From a virus (Duplodnaviria > Caudoviricetes), in the IMG/VR virus record IMGVR_UViG_3300034128_000015, positions 1 to 58,048 of that record: a stretch of 58,048 bases of DNA; one strand, 5' to 3'. How positions within the stretch are numbered: position 1 is the first letter of the stretch; each line of letters starts with the position of its first letter. The notes under the pieces were generated by a model that did no database searches, was not told the DNA's origin, and worked only from the letters and a program-made list of their open reading frames with translations. The translations under genes and the position numbers were made by a program. This document shows positions 2,088-52,629 of the stretch, piece by piece.

Positions 2088-4679
2088 TTAGATCCGTGTC
2101 TTCAGTGTGTAGAGCATTTCCAGCGCTTTTCGCGGTGTCAAGTCGTCCAGGTCAAGTTTTGCCAACTCATCCAGCACCGGATGGGGCAGGCTGGCGAACA
2201 TATCGCTCTGGTGTGGCGCGCTGGATTTGCTGCTGGCCTTCTTCGTGCTGGCGACCACGGTTTCGTGGGGCAGGGCGGTGGCCTCCAGACGGCTGAGGTG
2301 CTCGCGGGCGCGGGTGATCACGTCGTTCGGCACACCGGCCAACTGCGCCACGGCCAGGCCGTAGCTCTGGCTGGCCGGCCCTGGCAACACATGGTGCAGG
2401 AACACGATACGCTCGTTGTGCTCGGTGGCATTGAGATGCACGTTGGCCACCAGCGGCTCGCTTTCCGGCAGCACGGTCAGTTCGAAGTAATGGGTGGCGA
2501 ACAGCGTATAGGCGCGCAGGTGCGCCAGGCGCTCGGCCGCCGCCCAGGCCAGGGACAGGCCGTCGAAGGTGCTGGTGCCGCGGCCCACTTCGTCCATCAG
2601 CACCAGGCTGCGCTCGGTGGCGTTGTGCAGGATGTTCGCGGTTTCGCTCATTTCCACCATAAAGGTCGACCGGCCACCGGCGAGGTCATCGCTGGAACCA
2701 ATCCGCGTGAAGATGCGATCCACCAGGGACAGCTCGCAACTGGCCGCCGGTACAAAGCTGCCGATATGCGCCAGCAACACGATAAGCGCGGTCTGGCGCA
2801 TGTAGGTGGATTTACCGCCCATGTTCGGACCGGTGATCACCAGCATGCGGGTATCGTCATCCAGCGACAGGTCGTTGGCGACGAACGGCGTGGTCAATAC
2901 CTGCTCCACCACCGGGTGGCGACCCTGAACGATGCGCATGCACGGCTCGCTGACAAACCGCGGGCAGTTCAAGTCAAGGTTCAGCGCACGTTCGGCCAGG
3001 TTGCTCAGCACATCCAGTTCCGCCAATGCGGCGGCGGTGTCTTGCAACGGCGCCAAGCGGCCGATCAAATCTTCGAGCAGCGCTTCATACAGCATCTTTT
3101 CCCGCGCCAAGGCGCGGCTCTTGGCCGACAGCGCCTTATCTTCGAACGCTTTCAGCTCCGGGGTGATGAAGCGCTCGGCACCTTTTAGGGTTTGACGACG
3201 TTGATAGTCGATGGGCGCCTGCTCGGCCTGCTTGCTCGGCAACTCGATGAAGTAGCCATGCACGCGGTTGTAACCGACCTTCAGGTTGGCCAGGCCGGTG
3301 CGCGCTTTTTCGCGGGCTTCCAGGTCAATCAGGAACTGCCCGGCGTTCTCGCTCAGGGACTGCAGTTCATCCAGTTCGCTGTCATAACCAGTCTTGAGCA
3401 CGCCGCCGTCACGGATGATCGCCGGCGGGTTGTCGATGATGGCTTTTTCCAGCAGCGCCGCCAGGTCCGGGTAGGTGCCGGCAGTTACCGAAAGTTGTTG
3501 CAGGTGTGGCGTGTCCAGTTCGGTCATCGCCACTTGCAGTTGCGGCAGGGCGCTCAAGGCATCACGCAGACGCGCCAAGTCACGGGGCCGCGCGTTGCGC
3601 AGGCCGATCCGCGCCAGGATGCGCTCGATATCGCCGATTTCTTTCAACTGCGGCTGCAGCTTTTCGAAGCGATAGCCGTCCAGCAGGCAGGTAATCGACG
3701 TCTGCCGCGCTTGCAATACCGTCAAATCCCGCAGCGGGCGGTTCAGCCAACGGGTCAGCAAGCGGCTGCCCATGGCGGTCTGGCAACGGTCCACCACCGA
3801 TTGCAGAGTGTTGTCGCGGCCGCCGGCCAGGTTGGTGTCCAGTTCCAGGTTGCGACGGCTGGCGCCATCGAGCACGACGGTGTCGTCCAGGCGCTCATGG
3901 CGCAGGCTGCGCAAGTGCGGCAGGGCGGTGCGCTGGGTTTCCTTGGCATAGCTGAGCAGGCAACCGGCGGCGCCGATGGCCAGGGTCAGGGTTTCGCAAC
4001 CGAAGCCCTTGAGGTCCTGCACGGAGAACTGCTGGCACAGGCTTTTCAGCGCCGAATCACGCTCGAAATCCCACGGTGCGCGACGCTTGGTCCCACGACG
4101 ACGTTCCGCCGGCAGGTCCTTTGGCCAATCATCCGGGATCATCAGCTCCACCGGATTGATACGCTCCAGCTCCGCCAGCAGGTTCTCCCAGCCTTTGGTC
4201 TCCAACACACTGAAGTTGCCGCTGGTGATATCCAGTACCGCCAGGCCGAACAGCCGCTCATCGCCGAGCACCGCGGCGATCAGGTTATCGCGACGCTCAT
4301 CCAGCAGCGCCTCATCACTCACCGTCCCCGGCGTAATAATGCGCACCACCTGACGCTCCACCGGCCCCTTGCTGGTGGCCGGGTCGCCGATCTGCTCGCA
4401 GATCACCACCGACTCGCCCAGCTTCACCAGCTTGACGAGGTAGCCTTCCAACGAATGGTAAGGAATCCCACACATCGGAATCGACTGCCCCGCCGACTGC
4501 CCACGCGCGGTCAGGGTGATATCCAGCAACTTGGCGGCCTTCTTCGCGTCTTCGTAGAAGATCTCGTAGAAATCGCCCATGCGATAGAACATCAACTGAT
4601 CAGGGTGCTGGTTTTTCAGGCGCCAGTACTGCTGCATCATTGGGGTGTGGGAGGACAGATCGGAAATTGGCTTATTCAT
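2088..4679 (-). CDS. mutS: DNA mismatch repair protein MutS (863 aa; first codons supplied by the prophage end)
   Basis: [34 protein letters not shown]; ATG at 4679 chosen by homology with the copy at 50220. Confidence 0.97.
4639..4650 (+). repeat. attL core ATTGGGGTGTGG
   Basis: Identical to 50180-50191; both continue with NNGGACAGATCGGAA...TCATCAGA. Confidence 0.88.
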
Positions 4680-47892: not shown

Positions 47893-49674
47893 TTATTTTG
47901 GATATTGAAATCTCAGTAATAATCTGTCGATGTTGTCTTTAGAAAATACGAGCTGCTTCTCTGATAGTTTTTTTCGGTAAGACATATAATTAAGCTCTAC
48001 CATTTTGAACCCTTGTGCTACGGAAATAATCGTCGCGTCCATTGAGGCGAGCGCCATTAACCATCGCATGATAGAGTCTAGATAGTCATGAGTATTCTCT
48101 ATCAAGACCTCCGCATAAGAAGGTGTGGAGCCATCATGTACGATAGTGTTTCTTGCGCGGTATATTCGGCGCAGTTGCCAAGCAACTCTTTTTTCGTGGT
48201 TGTCTAGAATTTTTAAAATTTCAGTAGGACTAGTCAGCAGGCTGACAAGATACTTATAACGATCCTCGAGCAAATGATAGTCGCCAAAACTTGCCTCTAA
48301 CTCGTCACGTAAATATTGATATTCTGGCAGGGCAAGCAAGTGCGCGGTTTTCGAAGAGATGCCTTGTGTGTCGATTTTTTTGTACAGTTTGCGAACCAGA
48401 TTTTTATTCCATTGTAATAAATCTTTGAAGAATCTAGTTAGTAATTTGTTTATGTACTCAAGATTAAGGAATGGGGTAATAGATGATGTTAAATGGTCAA
48501 TTTGAGCTAAATCTTTATCTGTTTTGCTTGGTACTAGGGACTCTAGTGCGATCCATAAATTGATCATCTGGTTTTCTATGGAGTCACTACCTAGTGCAAG
48601 AGAATGCAGTTCGGCGCTTCGGTGGAATTTGTTAAAGGATTCTTTGTCCAATGCAAAAGCTTTGAGGAAACTCGATAATTTCTTAGATGCAACACTTGGA
48701 ACGGCATCAGCGCATTTGTGCATTGGATTTGTATGTTTAGAAATTTTTGTACAAGTTTCCGTGGCGGCATTTTTTACCAAGCATTCGTTTATAGGTTTTG
48801 GTGATTCTTTATGATGGTATAGTCCAATTAGAGTTTGAATCGCCTCAACTGAACTGTCGGCTTTGATTTTGACAAAGTTTGGTTCTTTTCCTTTTATTTT
48901 CTCCAGGCAAATAAAAACTTCATTGTTTCCTAAGTGTATGTCGTGTCTTCTAATGTCTTCCTCGGTTATAGGGCAGTTCTCCAAGTTTTCAAGTACATTT
49001 ATTCCTAGAAGTCCTGCCGCTTCGGAAAATGCCACAAGATAAGAAGGTGCTTTGTAAATCACATAGTGCTCAGTTACTTTTGTAGAAAAGTATCTAAAGT
49101 AATCCTCTATAGCTCCGTTTCCCGATATTCTGTCTGTCGAGTAATGGAAAAAATCTTTGGATGTTTGGCATATGTACGTGGCGGTATATCCGCTATTGAG
49201 TAGCGTGGTGATGTATGATCGCGTTAGCTTGCGCAACCGCGAACTTTGCTCTCTTCCCAGCAGTTCCTCCTTAATCAGTTCTTCATTTTTTGCCTTGTAA
49301 GCAGGCAGTGGGATCTGACGCAGTAATAACTTAACAACTGTAGCAATGCTGGCATCTGAGGATTTTGGATTCGTAAGGGTGTTTATTACGCCAACTTCAT
49401 CAACAGACATTAGGCTGCGAGCAACCTCGTCAGATTGCAGGTTTTCGCACAGCTCATTTAGTATGTGAAGCAAATTAGGCTTCATCACAATTCCAGCGTC
49501 AATTGCCACAATTGTATCGGCAGCCTCCTTAACTAGTAAGGCTGTGTTCATGGCTGATGGCTTATAGCTATCAAGAGTGTAGTCAAACATTAATTCATCT
49601 ATTAGCTGAGCAACAAATATCAACCCCTTGGACTCTGATTTGTTATCCCATTTGTTCAGGCTTCGGAACCGCAT
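47893..49674 (-). CDS. Large HEPN-domain protein, ApeA-like C-terminus (593 aa)
   Basis: LWIALESL and RIYRARNTIVHDG (Rx4H); AT-rich; GAGG RBS at 49674 (ORF open to 49815). Confidence 0.78.
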   Translation of the reverse strand: MRFRSLNKWDNKSESKGLIFVAQLIDELMFDYTLDSYKPSAMNTALLVKEAADTIVAIDAGIVMKPNLLHILNELCENLQSDEVARSLMSVDEVGVINTLTNPKSSDASIATVVKLLLRQIPLPAYKAKNEELIKEELLGREQSSRLRKLTRSYITTLLNSGYTATYICQTSKDFFHYSTDRISGNGAIEDYFRYFSTKVTEHYVIYKAPSYLVAFSEAAGLLGINVLENLENCPITEEDIRRHDIHLGNNEVFICLEKIKGKEPNFVKIKADSSVEAIQTLIGLYHHKESPKPINECLVKNAATETCTKISKHTNPMHKCADAVPSVASKKLSSFLKAFALDKESFNKFHRSAELHSLALGSDSIENQMINLWIALESLVPSKTDKDLAQIDHLTSSITPFLNLEYINKLLTRFFKDLLQWNKNLVRKLYKKIDTQGISSKTAHLLALPEYQYLRDELEASFGDYHLLEDRYKYLVSLLTSPTEILKILDNHEKRVAWQLRRIYRARNTIVHDGSTPSYAEVLIENTHDYLDSIMRWLMALASMDATIISVAQGFKMVELNYMSYRKKLSEKQLVFSKDNIDRLLLRFQYPK

Positions 49675-50040
49675 CTGCACACCCTCAAAAAAACGTCGGT
49701 TTTGCATGATGCCATAACGACATAATGAGGGGCAGTAGAATTGGTAAATAGTCTTCTGAAGAGCGTGCATTAAGTACGATGGCGCTCGCATGCACAGGTC
49801 GAATGTAGTGAGCAAAAAGCTCTTTCTAGCTTTTCGTCTGATATAGCATTGACTCCTTTCGAAAAAGAAAAAGGCATAGTACCGGTAGTACTCTTTGTGG
49901 GCGGTAAATGCTGCATGCTTAGAAATTGCTACAAAGCATTGTGTTATCGAGGAATTAGCCAGGCTGGCCGGGGGCGACGAGCGACTACGCCCAATCCATC
50001 ATCGGACGGATCGTTTCTCTAGAACCTCGAGCACCGAGCG

Positions 50041-50060
50041 TGGGGCAAAAATGGGGCAAA
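50041..50060 (+). repeat. Putative integrase arm-type sites (right)
   Basis: TGGGGCAAAAATGGGGCAAA. Confidence 0.65.
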
Positions 50061-50172
50061 CCATACGCCAATCTATGCCACCCAATGCCAATTATACGTT
50101 TATGCAACCTGAAGCATGCGCGCATTACAGCCAGCAACCACGGGCCTATCCCCCAAAATCCCTTACATACCC

Positions 50173-50220
50173 CTACACAATTGGGGTGTGGCTGGACAGA
50201 TCGGAAGTGTTTTTACTCAT
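50173..50220 (-). pseudogene. mutS: Displaced mutS 5' end ([13 protein letters not shown], then IV-stop in phage DNA)
   Basis: Aligns codon for codon with the start of mutS at 4679. Confidence 0.85.
50180..50191 (+). repeat. attR core ATTGGGGTGTGG
   Basis: Identical to 4639-4650. Confidence 0.88.
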
Positions 50221-50418
50221 CAGATAATTAGCGAATTCGTTAAAAGGAGTGGGGCAAAGGGGGCGCTTGGCCCAGCTGATTTTGCGATGGCGGCAAGGTT
50301 AACACGCGAGGTCGACCGTTCGCAGGCCCGCTCAAAAGTCACGGAAAATGCATAAAAATGCATAGTCAATGCAAATTAGCATTTGCCAAGCCTGAAATCT
50401 GTCGTCACTATCCGCTTT

Positions 50419-51153
50419 ATGCAAAAACGCAACGTTTCTATCGTCTTAAGAGAGCTGTTGGACCGCGACCGGATCTCCCCCACGGAGCTTCACCGGCGTA
50501 CCGGCGTGCCTCAATCCACGCTGTCCCGGATACTCAGCGGCAAGATCGTTGACCCCTCGGACAAGCACATCTCCCGCATCGCCGAGTACTTCCGCGTCAG
50601 CACCGACCAACTGCGCGGGCGCGCGGCGGTGGGCGTTTCGCGGGATGACGGGCGCGACCCGACGCATTCGGAACTCAAGGACATAAGCCTGTGGGATGAC
50701 GACACCCCCGTGAATGACGACGAGGTGTCGATCCCCTTTTTGCGTGAGGTTGAATTGGCTGCTGGATCAGGAAGATTCGTCATCGAGGAAAGCGAAAAGG
50801 CCAGCCTGCGGTTCGGCAAGCGCAGCCTGCGGCATAACGGCGTGCAGTTCGACCAGGCCAAGTGCGTGACAGTGCGCGGCAACAGTATGTTGCCAGTGCT
50901 GCGTGATGGCGCGACGGTGGGGGTGAATGCGGGCAAGAGCGCGATTGGCGACATCGTCGATGGCGACTTGTACGCCATCAATCACAATGGCCAGTTGCGG
51001 GTCAAACAGCTCTATCGCTTGCCTTCCGGGATTCGCCTGCGCAGTTTCAACCGCGATGAACACCCGGACGAGGACTACAGCTTCCAGGACATCCAGGATG
51101 AACAAATCAGCATCCTCGGTCATGTCTTCTGGTGGGGCATGTACGCCCGTTAA
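50419..51153 (+). CDS. prtR: PrtR-like tailocin repressor (XRE HTH + S24)
   Basis: HTH, AAGSG, GNSM.P, VKQL; first gene of the mutS-linked tailocin. Confidence 0.85.
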   Translation: MQKRNVSIVLRELLDRDRISPTELHRRTGVPQSTLSRILSGKIVDPSDKHISRIAEYFRVSTDQLRGRAAVGVSRDDGRDPTHSELKDISLWDDDTPVNDDEVSIPFLREVELAAGSGRFVIEESEKASLRFGKRSLRHNGVQFDQAKCVTVRGNSMLPVLRDGATVGVNAGKSAIGDIVDGDLYAINHNGQLRVKQLYRLPSGIRLRSFNRDEHPDEDYSFQDIQDEQISILGHVFWWGMYAR

Positions 51154-51169
51154 CCTCCTCGCGTAAGAC

Positions 51170-51197
51170 AAAGCCCGCCAATGAGCGGGCTTTTTTT
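51170..51197 (+). terminator. Terminator of the repressor gene
   Basis: AAAGCCCGC/GCGGGCTTT + T run. Confidence 0.85.
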
Positions 51198-51240
51198 CGT
51201 CTGTTGAAAGGCATCAAACCCTTTGCTAGCAAGGCTCTAA

Positions 51241-51313
51241 ATGCATCAGTGCATTTGCGCGCTGAAAATAAATGCATTTGTGCATTGACTGTATATGCAT
51301 ACATGCATATTCT
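51241..51313 (+). promoter_or_regulatory. Tailocin promoter with ATGCA-N4-TGCAT operators and an imperfect SOS box
   Basis: TTGACT-N17-TATTCT; three ATGCA..TGCAT palindromes; CTGTATATGCATACAT; similar ATGCA boxes at 50348-50382. Confidence 0.7.
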
Positions 51314-51319
51314 TTGTCT

Positions 51320-51675
51320 CAAGCCGGCCAACAAGGCCTGGTGGAGGCGGCAAGGATGCTGCCAAGGACGACAAGGAAGGCACGCAACATCGGCACGGAC
51401 GCCATCGAAGCGATGGCAGGGATGCCAAGCAACACCGGCAAGGATGCCGACGCTCTTTAGTTTCACCGTTTTACAAGAACAGGCAGCGATGAACCGGCCT
51501 TAACGGTTCAGAGGGTTGGCAACTGACCCGGGTGTGCAGCGTAAAGCACCAGAAGCAGTTATCCGGCAGACAGGGATCGTGGTCGGAAAAACATTGAGGA
51601 AAGATCCGTACCGCGCCAGTAGCGCCGAAAGATCAAGGACCGCATTACTGAAAAGCCCGGGCAACCGGGCTTTTT
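51320..51675 (+). ncRNA. Structured tailocin leader RNA (GGA hairpins, boxA, terminator)
   Basis: Four GGC-ANGGA(T/C)-GC hairpins, CGCTCTTTA, AAAAGCCCGG/CCGGGCTTTTT. Confidence 0.5.
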
Positions 51676-51748
51676 GGAATGCCTACCTATAAATGGATTT
51701 ACCCGAACACCGGCATTCTGCCGGCATTGCTCAGCCAGGAGGCGTGAC

Positions 51749-52093
51749 ATGACAAACGAGCAGCAAGCGTTAGCGGAAATGCCTATCTGGCTGGTGATCG
51801 TACTGGCGCTGATCGGCGGAGTTTCCGGCGAAATGTGGCGCGCCGACAAGGAGGGCGCCCGTGGTTGGTCGCTGATCCGGCGCCTGGCGCTGCGGTCTGG
51901 GGCGTGCATGGTCTGCGGGGTCTCGGCGTTGATGCTGTTGTACGCCGCCGGTATGTCGATCTGGACCGCCGGCGCCCTCGGTTGCCTGACCGCCATGGCC
52001 GGTGCGGACGTCGCCATCGGCCTTTATGAACGTTGGGCGGCCAAGCGCATTGGCGTCAACGAGGCCCCGCCCTCCCGCCCGGATCAGCAGTAA
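51749..52093 (+). CDS. Tailocin holin
   Basis: 3 TM segments, AGGAGG RBS. Confidence 0.9.
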   Translation: MTNEQQALAEMPIWLVIVLALIGGVSGEMWRADKEGARGWSLIRRLALRSGACMVCGVSALMLLYAAGMSIWTAGALGCLTAMAGADVAIGLYERWAAKRIGVNEAPPSRPDQQ

Positions 52094-52113
52094 CCGCTGC
52101 AAGGACGCGACTG

Positions 52114-52629
52114 ATGACATCTATCGAAAAACCTTCCCAACTGCCCATCGCAATTGGTGACGCGCTTAAGGGCGCCTTCCCACAATTGCGTGTGGGCAAT
52201 CACCAGGACTTCCAGGGCGCCGGGGATAAAACCGGCGTGCTGATTACTGTGGAACGCAACGGCCCCGGCGTTCGATCCCTTGAAGGGCGCAAGGCCCATG
52301 CACTGTCGGTGTCACTCATGGCCAGGGTTGCCAGCGGCTCGGCGCCTTACGACGCCTGCGACCTGGCCAGCCAATTGATGGATTTGGCCCTCGATAATCG
52401 CTGGGGCCTGCCGGCGGATCAGTGCGACCTGCCAACCGCCATCGTCGCGGCGCCGACCCTACAGGGCAGTGCCGAAACGGACTACGACACCTGGACAGTG
52501 TCCTTCACCCAAAACATCTACCTCGGCCCGCCGTTACTCGAAGATCCCACCGGAAAACCTCTGTTTGCCTGCACGTGGGAAGTCTCGAATATCGACGATC
52601 CTGACCAATACCGACCATTACAGGAGTAG
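52114..52629 (+). CDS. Tailocin tail completion-like protein
   Basis: Homologous to the 26086 gene. Confidence 0.7.
   Translation: MTSIEKPSQLPIAIGDALKGAFPQLRVGNHQDFQGAGDKTGVLITVERNGPGVRSLEGRKAHALSVSLMARVASGSAPYDACDLASQLMDLALDNRWGLPADQCDLPTAIVAAPTLQGSAETDYDTWTVSFTQNIYLGPPLLEDPTGKPLFACTWEVSNIDDPDQYRPLQE

Follow-up and report, generated by a model that had tools for sequence, protein, structure and literature searches.

The DNA analysed here (the window, a stretch of 58,048 bases) comes from a virus-type record, IMG/VR record IMGVR_UViG_3300034128_000015, whose nearest relatives are chromosomes of Pseudomonas paraveronii and Pseudomonas veronii (repressor 100% and 98% identical, respectively). 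It contains a tailocin cluster in which a cI/LexA-like repressor gene is followed, after a gap of 595 bases, by a holin gene, the first gene of the tailocin operon. Beyond the holin lie more long open reading frames (ORFs) on the same strand, which are read as probable tailocin genes from their frames. The subject of this analysis is the RNA leader in the gap, which is almost certainly a functional structured RNA. In its anatomy, the region is an Rsm-type GGA array combined with a proposed phage-type antitermination leader that is built on an undescribed RNA family. Repressors of the PrtR/PtbA type lie on the same strand as the tail genes and have no PrtN partner, unlike the arrangement in P. 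aeruginosa, according to the accessible part of one report (PMC4684702). The features of the locus, all on the plus strand, are as follows.

50383 to 51153, +, cI/LexA-like repressor gene of the PrtR/PtbA type, oriented as the tailocin operon (Pfam Peptidase_S24, E 8.6e-19, plus HTH_3 and HTH_26)
51170 to 51193, +, intrinsic terminator of the repressor gene (terminator scan: nine pairs, then TTTTCGTCTG; kept in the alignments)
51268 to 51313, +, operator repeats, consisting of ATGCAT repeats and ATAAATGCATTTGT (51268-81), that overlap the promoter, with −35 TTGACT at 51285-90 and −10 TATTCT at 51308-13 (scan and alignments)
51324 to 51341, +, P1, the first leader hairpin, CCGG...CTGG (5 of 5 pairs compensatory among 51 sequences)
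51346 to 51449, +, GGA module, made up of four hexaloop hairpins (ANGGAN) and a pair of single-stranded AAGGA motifs, with a central hairpin (51401-17) as an alternative fold
51481 to 51586, +, RNA core: AGGCAGCGAUG, P2 (51490-96/51504-10), P3 (51513-19/51523-29), P4 (51531-35/51546-50, loop GCAGCGUAAA), and P5 (51563-70/51577-86)
51603 to 51639, +, variable hairpin at about 51603-34, followed by CAAGGA at 51634-39, which immediately precedes the terminal hairpin (alignments; boundaries by eye)
51642 to 51682, +, long 3' hairpin: GCAUU / bulged A / CUG / AAAAGCCCGG-GCAA-CCGGGCUUUU / UGG / AAUGC (fold −30.5 kcal/mol, z −6.3)
51710 to 51751, +, small hairpin (51710-24), Shine-Dalgarno sequence CAGGAGG (51736-42), and holin ATG (51749) (sequence and alignment; boundaries by eye)
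51749 to 52093, +, holin, first gene of the tailocin operon (Pfam Phage_holin_3_5, E 2.4e-54)

The most conserved part of the leader is the core at 51481 to 51586 rather than the GGA cluster, and this main feature had been missed by an initial annotation of the sequence. When 19 diverse sequences are aligned with MAFFT, pairing across the five helices is 97.2% and 15 of the 32 pairs show compensatory changes; none of 500 shuffles scored as high, and slid controls gave 24 to 46% pairing. A second alignment of 51 sequences, which was fitted to the covariance model and so leans toward it, gives 97.9% pairing, with compensatory changes at 25 of 32 pairs. The loop and junction bases of the core are extremely conserved across genera, and the leader as a whole folds better than all of 100 shuffles (z −3.5). 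The covariance model scores the core at 121 bits, which is its only match in the window. None of the 4,227 models of Rfam 15 matches the core at an E value of up to 10 in positions 51100 to 51800, and the leader copy at locus L160 likewise has no Rfam match over its core at an E value of up to 1.

A DNA search detected the core in 216 of 401 evenly drawn genomes of the genus (215 of 400 without the unpublished genome G100), with up to four copies in some genomes. In a family-level sample, the covariance model matches 11 of 151 genomes; four of these matches are weak (37 to 50 bits) and keep the helices via many double changes. In a class-level sample of 150 other genomes, searched with strict filters, the core was found in none. 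In addition, it is present in 11 phage records and 27 plasmid records. The core represents an unnamed RNA family that is widespread on the phages, tailocins, and plasmids of Pseudomonas. In the phages Orimi01, Medea1, and PseuP_224, it heads the operon leading away from cro and the replication genes, and it lies just after cI in two of the three. The order of elements in the tailocin is the same as that in the phages: repressor, terminator, operators and promoter, and then leader. Plasmids of the P. syringae group carry the core between a helix-turn-helix (HTH) regulator gene and genes that include a lytic transglycosylase, and related chromosomal loci, as read from translations, place it behind an HTH-S24 repressor and ahead of type IV secretion-like genes. 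The first genes behind the leaders are unrelated (holin, lytic transglycosylase, csrA, and small ORFs), and no common phage-encoded partner is therefore evident. Three first downstream ORFs from the phages and a plasmid gave no Pfam hit, and no N-like gene was recognized among them. In L161, L170, and L176, the first ORF after the leader, ahead of the holin, encodes a small Cys-rich protein (MLKDFRCGHCK...) or other cargo; the Cys-rich protein may resemble Com of phage Mu.

The GGA module lies between P1 and boxA. The four hairpins described in the initial annotation are present at 51346-63 (HP1), 51392-403 (HP2), 51414-27 (HP3), and 51436-49 (HP4) as hexaloop hairpins of the type GGC-ANGGAN-GCC, and the two additional AAGGA motifs, at 51364-69 and 51373-78, are single stranded. 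The positions of the hairpins hold, but the drawing needs one change: HP2 and HP3 compete with the central hairpin at 51401-17, which is the one found in the minimum-energy fold and which shows one compensatory pair (5 sequences). The motif CANGGA occurs 92 times on the plus strand and 52 times on the minus strand of the window, and its densest stretch on either strand is the one at 51351, with six copies in 130 nucleotides (nt). The next densest has three and is the true rsmZ gene. The Poisson tail for at least six copies is 8.9e-8 per stretch, for about 893 stretches, and none of 20,000 mononucleotide shuffles of 51320 to 51460 contained six CANGGA motifs or four hexaloop hairpins. Among 67 distinct relatives, GGA is retained in all 67 at five of the motifs and in 58 at the first single-stranded motif, and positions 2 and 6 of the loops vary. 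The stems are 99.5% paired, with one pair changed on both sides, and 29 to 39 of 500 shuffles are equal to them; covariation can neither prove nor disprove these stems because they hardly vary.

From its distribution, the GGA module is a subgroup-specific insert between P1 and boxA, characteristic of the P. fluorescens subgroup. Sixty of the 401 genomes in the genus sample carry it at nearly full length, and four more have short, weak matches. The order in the window and in leaders of the P. fluorescens subgroup is P1, GGA module, boxA, and core, with P1 lying 5' of the insert. Leaders of the gingeri/fuscovaginae/batumici type lack the GGA module and have a short unrelated hairpin followed by boxA between P1 and the core. 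Twenty further fluorescens-lineage leaders contain no ANGGA, and boxA directly follows P1 in 19 of them. Putida-like leaders have neither the insert nor boxA between P1 and the core. The repressor and holin flanks are alike in leaders with and without the insert. The module grows and shrinks by whole units, with GACAAGGAA units expanded in L047 and L064, in which the aligned stretch measures 170 and 173 nt, respectively; that of the window has 157 nt. L160 (G128:C1:2433400-2435400, about 870 to 1250) holds another copy of the entire leader; its operators are similar, and its GGA module is shorter, lacking HP2 and HP3 and having a degenerate HP1. The partial GGA match in this genome was considered as an rsm gene and rejected, as it is this second leader copy and has no Rfam match. 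A sigma-54 reading of TGGCA-N4-TGCC was also rejected, by eye, because its spacing is wrong for the consensus.

The GGA module probably binds RsmA/E, as suggested by its density and the invariance of its GGA triplets. Alternatively, the hairpins could be unrelated to Rsm proteins and serve as boxB-like sites for another RNA-binding protein or as DNA operators, or they could be the product of neutral tandem-repeat growth. The units duplicate easily, as in L047 and L064, and the stems are near-palindromic as DNA, both of which are in line with these possibilities. However, the conserved GGA is strand specific and sits in a nonpalindromic loop, and G-U pairs in HP1 (57 of the 67 sequences) break the symmetry of the DNA. 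The invariance of GGA beside variable neighbors argues against neutrality, and no lineage-specific protein gene accompanies the insert, the flanks being the same with and without it. We consider this alternative quite improbable.

CsrA-family genes immediately follow the leader, or an additional copy of its 3' hairpin, in three independent nontailocin loci on mobile elements: L137 (1053-1322, −), L134 (964-1128, −), and L153 (1196-1360, −). Pfam E values of 3e-25 and 1.8e-26 were obtained for CsrA-family genes in such contexts, and L153 is a distant relative, with a 37-bit model match only. This suggests that an Rsm/Csr protein is often encoded within the operons that the leader family drives. 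Three CsrA-family genes each are present in the related genomes G001 and G329. The csrA neighbors and the GGA loops found elsewhere in leaders are leads to an Rsm connection rather than evidence of binding.

The initial annotation had likened the leader to the small RNAs RsmX, RsmY, and RsmZ (Rfam clan CL00106). The likeness holds for the architecture: both have several CA(N)GGA motifs, mostly in short loops closed by G-C pairs, and in both the number of units varies between strains. It does not extend to membership of the RsmX/Y/Z family, to which the region does not belong by its score, by the type of its promoter, or by the architecture of the gene. The Rfam search of the leader, which had been proposed as a check, gave PrrB_RsmZ at 20.7 bits (gathering score 44) and rsmX at 19.3 bits (gathering score 56). 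The former alignment is full length and weak (E 0.015), the latter covers only the 3' hairpin, and the other matches of the E-value scan are subthreshold and mostly fall on the two terminators. The true rsmZ gene of the window, at 1407 to 1542, scores 126.5 bits and is the sole match of the Rfam scan at gathering scores. The consensus of the GacA box is TGTAAG-N6-CTTACA. No GacA box is present in 51150 to 51320; the nearest match has three mismatches and lies inside the repressor gene, and matches with three mismatches are at the chance level (14 found, 11.75 expected). In addition, about 200 nt of other RNA, comprising boxA, the 105-nt core, and the variable hairpin, separate the GGA module from the 3' hairpin. 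Unlike the Rsm RNAs, the leader is part of an mRNA with a repressor-controlled promoter and not a separate gene. A GacA-type box, TGTAAGCATTTGCTTACT (1219-1236, one mismatch to the consensus), lies about 170 nt upstream of rsmZ, and the bona fide Rsm sponge and the GGA-rich leader are 50 kb apart on one record.

The RNA-library contigs bear on whether a separate leader RNA is made. In one run (X2), a contig ends at 51169, none lies over 51170 to 51350, and a 14.3-kb contig extends from 51351 through the leader and the hairpin into the tail genes. In another (X11), a contig of depth 5.8 ends at 51326, a contig of depth 484 covers 51327 to 52076, and the next contig has a depth of 162. The contigs are thus unbroken from about 51327-51351 across the 3' hairpin into the holin and beyond, and the discrete RNA of about 355 nt that had been proposed is not borne out. 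Read-through RNA exists, and the contigs are silent on the share of transcripts stopping at 51675. The contigs fit a start shortly after the −10 element, for which the gap at 51170 to 51350 in run X2 is a better hint than the contig edge in run X11. This edge, at 51327, was considered as a transcription start and dropped, with 962 unrelated bases lying 5' of that point.

A damage-induced Rsm sponge would require that most transcripts stop at 51675, yielding an RNA of about 355 nt with five to six GGA sites that builds up once the repressor is cleaved, titrates RsmA/E in trans, and switches on functions under Gac/Rsm control. The density of GGA motifs, which exceeds that of the true rsmZ gene of the window, the weak full-length PrrB_RsmZ alignment, the invariance of GGA in 67 of 67 relatives, and the strong 3' hairpin with its U-run are consistent with such a role, as is the mean depth of 484 for the contig at 51327 to 52076 in run X11 against 162 for the next. 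The depth step, however, falls after the holin and not at 51675, and the contigs continue across the hairpin. The terminator and the other parts of the leader are older than the GGA insert, which most lineages lack; a GacA box is absent, and neither Rfam match reaches its gathering score. Moreover, the RNA would be made only as the cell commits to lysis by the holin, which would limit its use as a trans signal. A sponge is therefore unlikely as an account of the leader, and action in trans is equally unlikely to be the main role of the GGA module.

Several ORFs of 58 to 65 codons are open in the leader (51272-51460, 51295-51492, and 51516-51692), and a small protein could in principle be encoded there. 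Two of these ORFs start inside the promoter, upstream of the starts of the RNA contigs, and the aligned stretches of L047 (170 nt) and L064 (173 nt) exceed the 157 nt of the window by numbers that three does not divide. The 110-nt insert of L003 falls in the third frame, and substitutions follow base pairing and not codons. A leader-encoded protein is thus hardly credible.

The boxA sequence CGCTCTTTA is present at 51451-59, as the initial annotation had it, in a single copy in the window and one base after HP4. At least one copy also occurs in 21 of 100 shuffles; the sequence is identical, letter for letter, to boxA of the ribosomal RNA (rrn) leader of a related genome, G329 (cgctctttaacaa). 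A search of genome contigs found 472 relatives of the repressor, and the best 80 of the 472, which are 87 to 100% identical, define the repressor-anchored loci. GCTCTTTA is present at the homologous place in 76 of these 80 loci, boxA is present in 19 of 20 further loci, and CGCTCTTTAG is found at boxA in 62 of the 67 distinct sequences. In L134 and L137, boxA lies upstream of P1, so that the core and boxA co-occur in two different arrangements. By its letters, boxA is of the ribosomal type and agrees with the host consensus of Nus-factor sites in nut and rrn leaders. The core is a better candidate for an antitermination module than boxA alone.

The terminator proposed for the end of the leader, AAAAGCCCGG-GCAA-CCGGGCTTTTT, is present at 51651-75 and, as an intrinsic terminator, has the form GCCCGG-GCAA-CCGGGC followed by UUUUU, with −17.0 kcal/mol for the hairpin extended by A/U pairs. 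A simple terminator scan passes over it; the likely reason is that its stem is extended into the T run by A/T pairs. The reading as a terminator is plausible, and the element forms the middle of the longer covarying hairpin at 51642-82. Of the 17 predicted pairs of this long hairpin, 11 are compensatory among 18 diverse sequences. It occurs in 108 distinct versions and keeps its place and base across tailocins, phages, and plasmids; in nontailocin leaders, it ends in GGGAAA and lies 10 to 25 nt ahead of the ribosome-binding site. The motif UUUCACUG-stem-YGGGAAA is found twice in the operon of L134 (1148-1191, −, and 1401-1460, −), at the end of the leader and just before the start of csrA, and the 3' hairpin may be an independent module. 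The stretch just 5' of it, at 51603 to 51639, varies in length and sequence between lineages. Some lineages carry a ACAGGAUU-loop hairpin plus GAAGGA there, and a GGA-loop hairpin with GAAGGA is found at this variable site, ahead of the 3' hairpin, in some leaders that lack the 5' insert. Inserts within the leader around the 3' hairpin were also observed, one of about 110 nt in L003 (about 4260 to 4368; P. veronii type, also in the RNA-library contigs of organism A) and one of about 240 nt in L075 (about 4225 to 4460); our guess is that both are repeat-element insertions.

The core and the terminator were compared in 83 leaders, namely, those of the window, the 80 repressor-anchored loci, L141, and L142. 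The core is present in 77 of them, and a hairpin-plus-U pattern was measured in 76, with a mean of −16.3 kcal/mol and the weakest at −11.5 kcal/mol; the pattern missed L059, which has the hairpin. Of the six leaders without the core, four lack the terminator and two keep weaker ones (−8.9 and −10.2 kcal/mol). Such a link between loss of the core and loss of the terminator is what would be predicted if the core were needed to pass the terminator. Another explanation is that the 3' hairpin is an RNase III-type processing site and that the core helps to fold or stabilize long mRNAs of mobile elements at their 5' end, acting on processing, stability, or translation with no effect on the polymerase. 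The helix of about 19 base pairs (bp) with its conserved bulged A, the conservation of pairing rather than of the U-run, the constant position just ahead of a start codon, and the repetition before csrA in L134 are consistent with processing, and the hairpin would resemble the RNase III hairpin that lambda has between nutL and the start of N. This explanation leaves boxA and the loss or weakening of the terminator upon loss of the core unaccounted for. It also does not account for the U-run of the tailocin versions, given that hairpin-plus-U is present in 76 of 76 measured core-bearing leaders, and we judge it improbable.

The promoter TTGACT-17-TATTCT at 51285 to 51313 was confirmed. It is the sole sigma-70-like site found by the scan of 50000 to 52500, in which shuffles lead to an expectation of 1.1; the scan alone is no proof of a promoter because shuffles give equally many sites. 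Support comes from its near-invariance in relatives (alignments of 18 and 30 sequences) and its overlap with the ATGCAT-type operator repeats. In P. protegens CHA0, a chromatin immunoprecipitation sequencing (ChIP-seq) peak of PrtR1 was found on ATAAATGCATTTAC, 391 bp upstream of hol, according to the accessible part of the report (PMC12066065). Judged by sequence, ATAAATGCATTTAC is the counterpart of the operator sequence in the window, and the spacing of 391 bp matches that of leaders without the GGA insert. In the same portion of that report, a reporter carrying the 516-bp prtR1-hol intergenic region is induced by mitomycin C by about 3 logs even when the whole tailocin cluster is deleted, and it is still inducible by about 3 logs in a prtR1 deletion strain, from which its authors infer further regulation (PMC12066065). 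The leader RNA is an obvious candidate for this PrtR1-independent induction.

The CHA0 result also bears on a sensor-type attenuator, in which the core would be a riboswitch-like domain or one that senses a protein or RNA, and the 3' hairpin would terminate transcription in tailocins or mask the start of the first gene in phages and plasmids. Such an element would form a second checkpoint beside the repressor, with the GGA module as an added input. The extreme conservation of the loop and junction bases across genera, the inducibility of the CHA0 reporter by about 3 logs in the prtR1 deletion (in the accessible part of PMC12066065), and the position of the nontailocin 3' hairpin 10 to 25 nt ahead of the ribosome-binding site all fit an attenuator. 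However, the core and the 3' hairpin showed no alternative pairing with each other, and a hairpin of variable length separates the two. The 3' hairpin also occurs alone within an operon, ahead of csrA in L134, other repressor paralogs could explain the CHA0 result, and the core has no match to Rfam aptamers. An attenuator of this kind is a doubtful alternative.

The reading that we favor is that 51320 to 51748 is a nut/put-like cis antitermination leader to which Rsm binding has been added as a gate, and we assign it a probability of roughly 40%. Antitermination, Rsm binding, and the direction of the gate are inferred here from the anatomy, conservation, covariation, distribution, and positions described above. 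The neighboring cI-like repressor would shut the promoter until DNA damage occurs. The leader would then be transcribed in the order of P1, GGA module, boxA, core, variable hairpin, and long terminal hairpin, with a U-run in tailocins. The core and boxA, together with host Nus factors, would modify RNA polymerase in the way that nut and put sites do in lambdoid phages, and the modified polymerase would pass the leader terminator and stay resistant to termination along the long operon, with the terminal hairpin stopping unmodified polymerases. Dimers of RsmA/E may bind the GGA module on the nascent leader, one base from boxA. Free Rsm protein (Gac off) would hinder the assembly of the read-through complex, and titrated Rsm protein (Gac on) would permit it, so that suicide by tailocin would need both DNA damage and a permissive Gac/Rsm state. 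The terminated or processed leader could in addition take up some Rsm protein as a side effect. That the leader acts on transcription elongation or termination, by whatever means, seems somewhat more probable than the contrary, and a cis gate as the main role of the GGA module is a tentative assignment, rated short of even odds. Gating by Gac/Rsm, which was the second option of the initial annotation, fits the anatomy better than a sponge does. A bolder version, which we consider rather unlikely in full, is that the core represents a new class of processive antitermination RNA that depends on host factors only and is distributed on tailocins, temperate phages, and conjugative plasmids of the Pseudomonadaceae. 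In the P. fluorescens subgroup, the core would be fused to an RsmA/E-binding array beside boxA, forming an AND gate of damage and Gac/Rsm state in which the leader feeds back on the Rsm pool.

A number of points weigh against the antitermination leader with an Rsm gate. The U-run is present only in the tailocin versions of the 3' hairpin and absent in the phage, plasmid, and csrA contexts, and the putida-like leaders have the core without boxA; the element may therefore have some other basic role, with the pairing of terminator and antiterminator being a use found only in tailocins. Pairs between the A-tract and the U-tract covary from A-U to G-C in L125, L126, L072, and L073, which indicates selection on the helix rather than on the U-run. 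The link between loss of the core and loss of the terminator amounts to about five independent events, some of which may be explained by single large deletions. A cis element present on every transcript gives no obvious reason for a terminator unless it is regulated. The GGA stems are nearly without covariation, the GGA module alone folds unremarkably (z −1.6; 17 of 200 shuffles as good), and the GGA cluster, in contrast to classical Rsm targets, is about 300 nt away from the ribosome-binding site of the holin. The covariance model has no match in the HK022 genome at an E value of up to 1, and by this model the core is not a homolog of put. The comparison with CHA0 applies only if its leader has the core. 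The RNA evidence consists of assembled RNA-library contigs, which show neither RNA ends nor local depth, and one raw-read run (X23) yielded 0 reads on the stretch and hence no ends, strand, or local depth.

Upstream of the repressor, a minus-strand ORF of 640 codons (47893-49815) lies just before the repressor gene in a stretch (47893 to 50300) that is A+T rich by eye. The stretch between rsmZ and the repressor is long and prophage-like, and 47893 to 50300 may form an island of its own that separates the prophage from the tailocin.

A cell that makes tailocins dies of it, and transcription of the holin gene thus needs tight control. Published work on tailocin clusters, as far as its accessible text goes, ends at the repressor and leaves the leader of about 390 to 480 nt and the PrtR1-independent response to mitomycin C unexplained (PMC12066065). 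The literature searched holds no account of the leader RNA, the core, an SOS-driven Rsm sponge or Rsm-binding RNA, or a put-like RNA in Pseudomonas, although supplements may hold transcript maps. Hits for "boxA" in the accessible text of PMC4684702 were discarded, as they refer to BOX-PCR primers. The leader now has a defined anatomy, and the mutants needed to test its proposed mechanism can be specified to the base. An antiterminator role for the core would mean a new RNA class on a very short list, and binding of RsmA/E by the GGA insert would link the SOS response to the Gac/Rsm network. In P. fluorescens SBW25, gacS mutations relieve plasmid costs driven by the SOS response and tailocins, which the authors explain via PFLU4242 in the accessible part of their report (PMC8544851). 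If the insert binds RsmA/E and the SBW25 leader has it, the leader could bear on the effect of these mutations.

Among known systems, the put sites of phage HK022 resemble the core in being structured RNAs that follow an early phage promoter and share no phage protein partner. The EAR element of Bacillus is, alongside HK022 put, an earlier example of a processive antitermination RNA, and boxA is no part of HK022 put. In lambda, nutL is located downstream of cI, where the operon leading away from cro begins. HK022 putL has the same position, as a structured RNA just downstream of an early repressor-controlled promoter, and a put site has about 70 nt and two stem-loops in the accessible description (PMC9378689), compared with four to five helices and about 105 to 140 nt for the core.

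CsrA-regulated leaders of the pgaA type resemble the tailocin leader in having many GGA motifs in a long 5' leader and a possible effect on elongation. The pgaA leader of Escherichia coli has six CsrA sites, and CsrA promotes Rho termination in it. In contrast to pgaA, the GGA cluster of the tailocin leader lies about 300 nt upstream of the start codon, beside boxA. The late operon of lambda (PR', 6S RNA, and tR') offers a third parallel, with a promoter, a short leader ending in a terminator, and a holin gene (S) in first place. In lambda, PR' is followed by the 6S RNA, tR', and then S, and Q loaded on the DNA is required. No homolog of Q, AlpA, or PrtN is present between the repressor and holin genes here, based on the ORFs, Pfam, and the accessible part of PMC4684702. 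Compared with nut sites, the tailocin cluster lacks an N-like gene, and the core is far larger than boxB. The lambda nutL/N leader and the boxB-boxA-boxC elements of rrn leaders resemble the tailocin leader in that boxA is the host rrn boxA with a hairpin immediately 5' of it, and the gene order is the same. The lambda N leader carries an RNase III hairpin between nutL and the N start, and the tailocin leader likewise has a long hairpin between its site and the first start codon.

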